Shown piece by piece: positions 54,313-54,504 of a stretch of 64,000 nt of DNA. The stretch covers positions 11,904,001-11,968,000 of the forward strand of contig OZ024743.1 of assembly GCA_964016885.1 (NCBI GenBank), given 5' to 3'. The notes under the pieces were generated by a model. It was given only the letters and a program-made list of their open reading frames with translations. It did not search any database and was not told the origin of the DNA. The stretch comes from Eledone cirrhosa (taxonomy: Eukaryota). The translations under genes were made by a program, and so were the position numbers. Every line of letters starts with the position of its first letter. The first letter of the stretch is position 1.

Positions 54313-54316
<4 letters not shown>

Positions 54317-54503
54317 AGTAAGTAAGACCCCGACGGCTGAGCTCAAGCCGTTTCGACGGCTAATTCTATACAGAATTAGCCGTCGAAACGGCTTGAGCTC
54401 AGCCGTCGGGGTCTTACTTACTCCTATTACCCACTCTACTACCCTAAGTATTGAGTACTTTGGTGCGTTATGGTCCACCTGGTTCCTTACCACTTTTCCT
54501 TCG

Positions 54504-54504
<1 letters not shown>
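54313..54504 (+). mobile_element. Half-hammerhead fold-back element, family A (perfect 55-bp arms plus 78-bp tail) in (TA)n
   Basis: 54313-54367 is the exact reverse complement of 54372-54426, with loop ATAC. The right arm reads AGAATTAGCCGTC-GAAA-CGGC-ttgagctca-GCCG-TC-GGGG. Confidence 0.88.

Follow-up and report, generated by a model that had tools for sequence, protein, structure and literature searches.

Penelope-like elements (PLEs) of the Hydra clade are the closest described relatives of the sequence analysed here. As described in PMC8557442, they share with it a C-terminal GIY-YIG endonuclease, RWK-like, DKT, CxCX5C, CxxC and CxH motifs, (TA)n targets, a type I hammerhead close to the 3' end in which stem II, CGAA and stem III are similarly arranged, and an inverted 5' copy with a tail at one end only. 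The present element differs in size (a unit of about 3.5-3.7 kb, whereas the Hydra families listed there are mostly below 3 kb), in its tail (80 bases rather than the 30-40 described for the clade), in its hammerhead core (UUGANAA, against CUGA.GA in all Hydra rows of File S2) and in its loop II (about 38 bases with an inferred transcription start, against 3-10 bases in those rows). A search of the PMC8557442 supplement for two 13-base motifs of our PLE family gave no match.

The Poseidon element PAc of Anolis, characterised in vitro (PMC11167929, available in part), resembles our reading of the locus in having two internal reverse transcriptase (RT) start sites that bound the tail, in the cutting and extension of both DNA strands, in its AT-rich targets and in a predicted dimer. 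It differs in that the ribozyme is whole, that the ORF starts at stem II, and that priming takes place without target homology, whereas here TAT follows each of the two sites, and both are in the 5' UTR. In the available portion of that study, HHR mutants had no effect on insertion in vitro, and the inverted ends were not derived from twin priming.

The Penelopes of Adineta and Drosophila (PMC3846280 and PMC2377424, both in part) are alike in their head-to-head inverted repeats, junction palindromes and optional tail, and in the TATA and Inr-like motifs of the pLTR; antisense self-priming has been proposed for their inverted ends (PMC3846280), whereas we favour twin priming for those described below. 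In D. virilis transcription begins ahead of an intron whose end is at helix I (PMC4209133, available in part), and so upstream of the ribozyme rather than inside it, where we would place it here. The same source describes the hammerheads of the Schistosoma PLE Cercyon, which resemble ours in U3-A8 core covariation and a palindromic loop III; they are without a real helix III, whereas the predicted helix III here has 5 bp and loop II is long. Cleavage was proposed there to give circles that template tandem copies. Both the origin of the inverted, one-tailed PLE ends and the role of the hammerheads are named as open questions in the parts of PMC8557442 and PMC3846280 drawn on here.

A mirror insertion in a (TA)n repeat

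The window, a stretch of 64,000 nucleotides from Eledone cirrhosa, contains a mirror insert of about 190 bases. A palindrome scan of the window recovered perfect inverted arms of 56 bp (54312-54367 and 54372-54427, a length to which the TA repeat contributes three bases) on either side of a 4-base centre, with a one-sided tail that follows the palindrome and ends at 54504, and with (TA)n on both flanks. The original prediction of a perfect palindrome with a one-sided tail inside (TA)n thus described a real structure, of which the sizes are corrected to 56 rather than 55 bp for the arms and to 80 bases from the short-arm end (77 without the shared TAT) rather than 78 for the tail. Among perfect non-simple palindromes with arms of at least 18 bases, the window holds only this copy and a relative near 60546. 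Element coordinates take the first base of an initiator-like motif as +1, and window position equals 54366 + n. The insert and its flanks are composed as follows.

54246-54314, no strand: left (TA)n target repeat, read from the sequence
54315-54367, minus strand: tail-less arm, element +58 to +6, likely a cDNA primed at site 1
54368-54371, plus strand: junction, element +2 to +5, in loop II beside the inferred transcription start (+1)
54372-54504, plus strand: tailed arm, element +6 to +138, likely a cDNA primed at site 2
54377-54384, plus strand: 3' strand of hammerhead stem II
54385-54388, plus strand: GAAA half of the hammerhead core
54388-54406, plus strand: stem III (5 bp, 54388-54392 with 54402-54406) and its 9-base loop with a palindrome
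54405-54407, plus strand: GUC triplet, by the hammerhead consensus (PMC4209133 and PMC8557442 File S2, both in part)
54408-54412, plus strand: 3' strand of stem I
54425-54504, plus strand: PLE "tail" (+59 to +138), between the two fixed 3' ends
54505-54546, no strand: right (TA)n target repeat, read from the sequence

Each arm had been described as the 3' half of a type I hammerhead, with GAAA, a stem III bearing a self-complementary loop, GUC and a G run, and this holds, the G run occupying 54408-54411 within the 3' strand of stem I. The window copy contains this half of the core twice and the other half not at all. The mirror arm, which had been noted to stand where the other core half and stem II strand would be expected, is not the true stem II partner; that partner lies at about -40 to -31 in the parent and is absent from the window copy. 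In a complete ribozyme the predicted cut would fall after 54407, between +41 and +42. The centre of the window copy is one base off the commonest junction, and the junction itself carries one changed base where most copies of the same register have a 4-base palindrome. In full-length copies the tail is part of the 5' UTR, with an ATG at +232.

A 32-base piece has 1,550 exact matches in the species' own 3.0-Gb genome and its reversed control pattern has none; this recurrence is not chance. At least 40 genomic places are identical (100%) over the tailed arm, as judged from the best 40 matches. The first 100 matches resolve into about 72 insertions, 51 of them short head-to-head pairs (the window copy is L001 in this set), and by extrapolation the window subfamily has roughly 800 such pairs genome-wide. 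A long-read assembly artefact is ruled out, as the arms differ by mutations, the junctions vary and short-read contigs contain opposite-strand joints.

Three relatives from other subfamilies lie within the window: a solo tail-less arm at 20477-20537, which starts exactly at +1 and belongs to a subfamily without the 4-base palindrome, a solo tailed arm at 23645-23770 and an older mirror copy at 60425-60593. The window also contains a common short repeat, presumably a cephalopod SINE, at 54695-54871 and again at 46757-47525 and 50892-51030. On the minus strand at 59899-59993, an initiator-type tRNA-Met gene or retrocopy is joined to an 18-base piece resembling the element 5' end, and a match of 13 bases to the start of the tail overlaps the 5' end of the tRNA; this may be a tRNA-PLE chimera or a chance match.

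Judged by motif inspection and target preference, on which the clade assignment rests, the insert is a short copy of a very active Penelope-like retrotransposon of the Hydra clade. The proposed PLE origin is borne out by longer copies, which run upstream into a 3' UTR and a GIY-YIG endonuclease. Full copies consist of pLTR, 5' UTR, RT-endonuclease ORF, 3' UTR and pLTR, often preceded by an inverted piece, and the partial tandem or inverted pLTRs with an optional tail are those of PLEs. As in PLEs generally, there is a single ORF, of 717 aa, in which RT motifs and, close to the C-terminus, a YIG motif were recognised by eye. Inspection against the available parts of PMC8557442 finds the Hydra-clade motifs RWR, DKT, CxCX5C, CxxC and CxH in this protein, and the copies show the clade's preference for (TA)n. 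The first motif differs by family, being RWR in the parent and RWK in a related family in L080. The protein has 855 relatives at E<=1e-30, and Pfam returned no family for two pieces of the ORF.

In a sister subfamily, dozens of frames are still open, at about 784 codons each, and there are perfect tandems of 3,531 bases. The ORF-intact sister subfamily lacks a 31-base tandem repeat that is present, at variable copy number, in the 3' UTR of the window subfamily (L027:790-1110). The related family in L080 (1-5165, oriented minus) is a second Hydra-like family, with a 781-aa frame and a perfect tandem.

A predicted hammerhead in the parental terminal repeat

The terminal repeat of the parent carries a complete predicted type I hammerhead with a rare U3-A8 core. 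Its pattern comprises a C run, UUGANAA, a G, a 6-base stem II strand (about -36 to -31), a loop of about 38 bases and the 3' half found in the window, giving three helices around the core and an NUH site. Such complete sequences occur in 68 distinct forms among 174 fetched stretches, in which overlapping loci count more than once. The expectation that a parent with a complete hammerhead exists was therefore correct in outline and wrong in its sequence: the core is UUGANAA, and a canonical CUGANGA half was found neither upstream, nor downstream (type II), nor across an intron in three full copies. An upstream CTGATTT stretch, considered as a decayed core or as a splice acceptor, was ruled out because it is not conserved in the ORF-intact subfamily.

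Twenty-seven of the 68 sequences were aligned, near-identical and deleted copies having been dropped from a set whose selection pattern required the core and stem II. Within this set, 89.8% of cells pair, against 22-49% in slid controls. The stems and core are kept while core position 7 varies, and loop II is almost wholly different between old and young subfamilies with its length unchanged. One stem II pair is G-C in 10 copies and A-U in 17; since it probably reflects a single change separating two subfamily groups, in a set selected by pattern, this switch supports the fold and does not prove it. The minimum-energy fold is a three-way junction in two of four copies (the ORF-intact and one older variant), it differs from the hammerhead in the older copy L186, and in the window subfamily a rival fold lies 1.3 kcal/mol below the hammerhead fold. 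Support from RNAalifold was weaker, with stem II recovered from the alignment and stems I and III not. Rfam gave no hammerhead among the matches listed for the window (150 of 306) and no hammerhead match for the parent stretch, misses that the long loop and variant core would explain.

An alternative hairpin at +12 to +27 (window 54378-54393) hides GAAA in the 5' half-ribozyme and survives in the older subfamily through a G-U pair; it is a possible off state of the half-ribozyme. In the L080 family, the upstream region holds a TATA-like box, CUGAAGA and a separate GAAA...GUC about 100 bases apart, in which no convincing hammerhead fold was seen by eye.

At +42, the base that directly follows the predicted cut, ends were found at 15 of 30 loci (36 matches), compared with 6/15 at +43 and 13/23 at +41, 6 of the latter ambiguous. 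Among 21 ultra-short mirrors, most of the 12 not joined on the loop III palindrome have an arm that ends at +42. This modest excess is weak support for cleavage in vivo, and a pause at stem III could give the same ends.

Arm ends, junctions and their possible origins

The copies end at only two 3' positions, +58 and +138, which are 80 bases apart and each followed by TAT. Many long copies end at +58, and this position is therefore a priming site in its own right. In 50 of the 51 short head-to-head insertions one arm is tailed and the other tail-less, and the remaining one has a partial tail; the same one-tail rule applies to all 24 and all 26 pairs of two selected sets and, in a set of 32 stretches, to all 16 long insertions of which both ends are visible. 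Under free choice of site, half of the pairs would be mixed.

From the sequences, we consider it likely that the mirror copies represent two reverse-transcription events running off a capped RNA that would itself likely begin in the predicted hammerhead loop II. Transcription would start at +1 within the loop to give a capped RNA. It is quite likely that the element endonuclease then nicks both (TA)n strands and that each target 3' end primes one cDNA, one at +58 and one at +138, probably on one RNA. Both cDNAs would run to the cap at +1 and stop there, and their identical 3' ends would be joined either by way of a short palindrome or, with filler, by end joining. This two-cDNA reading fits the behaviour of a PLE protein in vitro (PMC11167929, in part).

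The original prediction held instead that a tail-primed cDNA crosses stem II, snaps back on the ribozyme's own local hairpin and copies itself; the mirror arm would then have to be trimmed at +58 by the endonuclease or by repair. Some of the data agree with it. Among the first 100 genomic matches, the symmetry axis, whose mapping had been suggested, is placed non-randomly and within loop II; fillers are often copied from nearby element sequence; and a transcript from -4 would yield a cDNA end with a 4-bp hairpin (-0.4 kcal/mol), matching 4 of 16 common-register junctions. These 4 junctions and many of the templated fillers fit some local fold-back, which is likely to occur during joining. As a source of the mirror arm, however, self-copying is improbable. 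A self-copy must be contained in the first cDNA, and non-nested arms count against it for that reason: where short pairs differ by at least 10 bases, the tail-less arm reaches further 5' in 9 of 50 and the tailed arm in 4 of 50, although asymmetric deletion in palindrome centres could mimic non-nesting in such short copies, and the arms are not nested in 6 of the 16 long insertions. In L062, L068, L069, L074 and L080 the tail is present only in the short inverted arm and the main arm never gets to the upstream pLTR, and in L124 the tail-less arm exceeds the tailed one by 2.6 kb. The mirror arm stops at the fixed second priming site, an RNA starting at +1 would have a broken stem II, and some filler junctions carry an extra G on both arms (L191/L192, L208/L209 and L220). 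Finally, the usual cDNA end has no predicted self-fold, while two such ends are predicted to pair at about -4 kcal/mol.

The two-cDNA reading places a transcription start where the arms stop. Arm 5' ends, counted in the first 100 matches by position on contig 1 with a pattern that excludes arms shorter than +29, fall at -6 to +8 in 77, at +10 to +29 in 16 and far upstream in 7. Position +1 is an initiator-like motif in loop II, about 10 bases beyond stem II; solo copies begin there, flush with the TA repeat, and an older subfamily without the 4-base palindrome has the same axis. An Inr motif and TATA spacing are signs of a promoter, and a TATA-like box is present at -30 in the younger subfamilies, with no clear one in the older subfamily. 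A non-parental base stands just before +1 in 610 copies; in the first 100 of these it is G in 49, T in 40 and A in 11 (hand count), and no extra G occurs at 13 junctions at +41. A copied cap, as in L1, is the simplest reading of the extra G, with the ambiguity that T is nearly as common and that several Gs can be read as the mirrored parental -1 base or as templated filler; solo copies with a G flush on a TA-type repeat were seen only twice (L102 and L114). In organism A short-read contigs (four runs from one study and two samples, sample kind not recorded), depth rises about 18-fold at +1 and falls after the tail, and opposite-strand joints occur near +1. On these sequence features +1 is likely the transcription start, so that the RNA would begin with only the 3' half of the ribozyme and carry a whole ribozyme only at its far end.

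The same pile-up of ends could be an RT strong stop on a long transcript, at the structure of stem II and loop II rather than at a capped start, the two cDNAs still being joined. The stop site does lie inside a structured domain, and the 16 arms that end at +10 to +29 end within hairpins; yet the peak is at the initiator-like motif in the loop rather than at the stem, the extra G precedes +1, and ORF-bearing copies cross the same structure on a second pass in 26 of 26 cases, all of which makes this explanation quite unlikely.

The junctions bear on the remaining proposals. Among 51, the arms overlap in 31, are blunt in 5 and contain filler in 15. Sixteen use the 4-base palindrome at +2 to +5, 12 share one identical perfect junction, and 35 lie outside the common register and are nearly all different; 9 of the 21 ultra-short mirrors are joined on the loop III palindrome. 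Self-priming on an antisense transcript, the published reading of the same geometry in rotifer Penelopes (PMC3846280, in part), would account for head-to-head palindromes joined at such junction palindromes, but it predicts neither ends at a sense initiator with an extra G, nor the strict one-tail rule, nor solo arms with the same ends, and we regard it as very unlikely here. Equally improbable is that the hairpin is itself mobile, MITE-like or SINE-like, and amplified from a master copy: the many identical tailed arms and the 12 identical junctions suit it, but most junctions differ, mirrors arise separately within each subfamily variant, the copies lack the upstream promoter region and a full RT-endonuclease parent accounts for every base.

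The stereotyped MITE-like product that had been anticipated is accordingly stereotyped in outline, while a self-amplifying unit is disfavoured because the junction varies. The one-sided tail means that the ends are not terminal inverted repeats, and together with the variable junctions and RT parent it sets the copies apart from MITEs and DNA transposons, whose TIR signature had been named as evidence against the proposal; target duplications are unreadable in the (TA)n flanks. A non-LTR retrozyme, with tandem monomers and complete hammerheads (bioRxiv 10.64898/2026.07.22.740005, in part), does not match these dispersed head-to-head halves.

Template RNAs and the possible role of the ribozyme

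Twin priming in L1 involves two target nicks that prime two cDNAs, which are joined by microhomology and derive from different parts of the RNA at random sites; in the mirror copies, by comparison, both cDNAs cover the same part of the RNA from fixed sites. A short cDNA that runs off a capped 5' end is also familiar from retroviruses as minus-strand strong-stop DNA. No evidence of the strand transfer that accompanies it was found in the element copies, and transfer of this kind at each pass is disfavoured, since none of 26 ORF-bearing copies stops at +1 on the second pass.

The upstream +1 is reached by 26 of 30 ORF-bearing loci and passed by every one of the 26, so productive copies would come from RNA that is continuous across this position. 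In the 16 long insertions, which were chosen for one long arm, the partner arm extends beyond +1 in 14, compared with 7 arms in the overall set of 100; both cDNAs therefore seem to use one RNA or one RNA class. We give even weight for and against a second RNA form, continuous across +1, as the template of the long and tandem copies; it would most likely be a ribozyme-cut circle and otherwise a read-through multimer. Short internal repeats around +1 occur in two long insertions (L285:310-1754, -82 to +94, and L074, -83 to +38) and suggest template jumps near the start site.

More tentatively, and on balance doubtfully, the ribozyme might act as a switch between two RNA forms, with mirror copies as dead ends and twin priming as the general origin of inverted PLE ends. 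The capped mRNA could not cut its own 5' end, while its 3' end would carry the whole ribozyme and both ends would repeat +1 to +41. Exchange between these repeats would let the half-ribozyme of the 3' end cut off the capped leader, and the resulting unit-length RNA would close into a circle serving as template for full-length and tandem copies. Both target strands would be primed by one protein dimer, at two sites of a single RNA, and priming on uncut mRNA would give the dead-end mirror copies.

A PLE insertion with an inverted end and a tail is known already. New relative to the literature searched are the start site inside a hammerhead loop, the cap-marked run-off copies and the one-tail, non-nested rule that points to twin priming. 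In that literature, which did not extend to older subscription sources, we found neither twin priming as the origin of inverted PLE ends nor a transcription start inside hammerhead loop II of a retrotransposon; PMC3846280 was the only source on Penelope self-priming, and nothing retrieved on a Penelope strong-stop was on topic.

If the two-cDNA reading is true, run-off cDNAs from two sites would explain the inverted, one-tailed ends of PLEs. The family leaves hundreds of very young intermediates, with one tail per insertion, run-off at a fixed start and paired arm lengths, and these, together with dozens of intact ORFs, would allow a direct test of twin priming in the published in vitro PLE assay. 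A start within the ribozyme loop, leaving an inactive half at the 5' end and a whole copy at the 3' end, would if true be a new form of control over self-cleavage, and, to judge from the long loop and variant core, a hammerhead may have gone unnoticed in other "ribozyme-less" PLEs.
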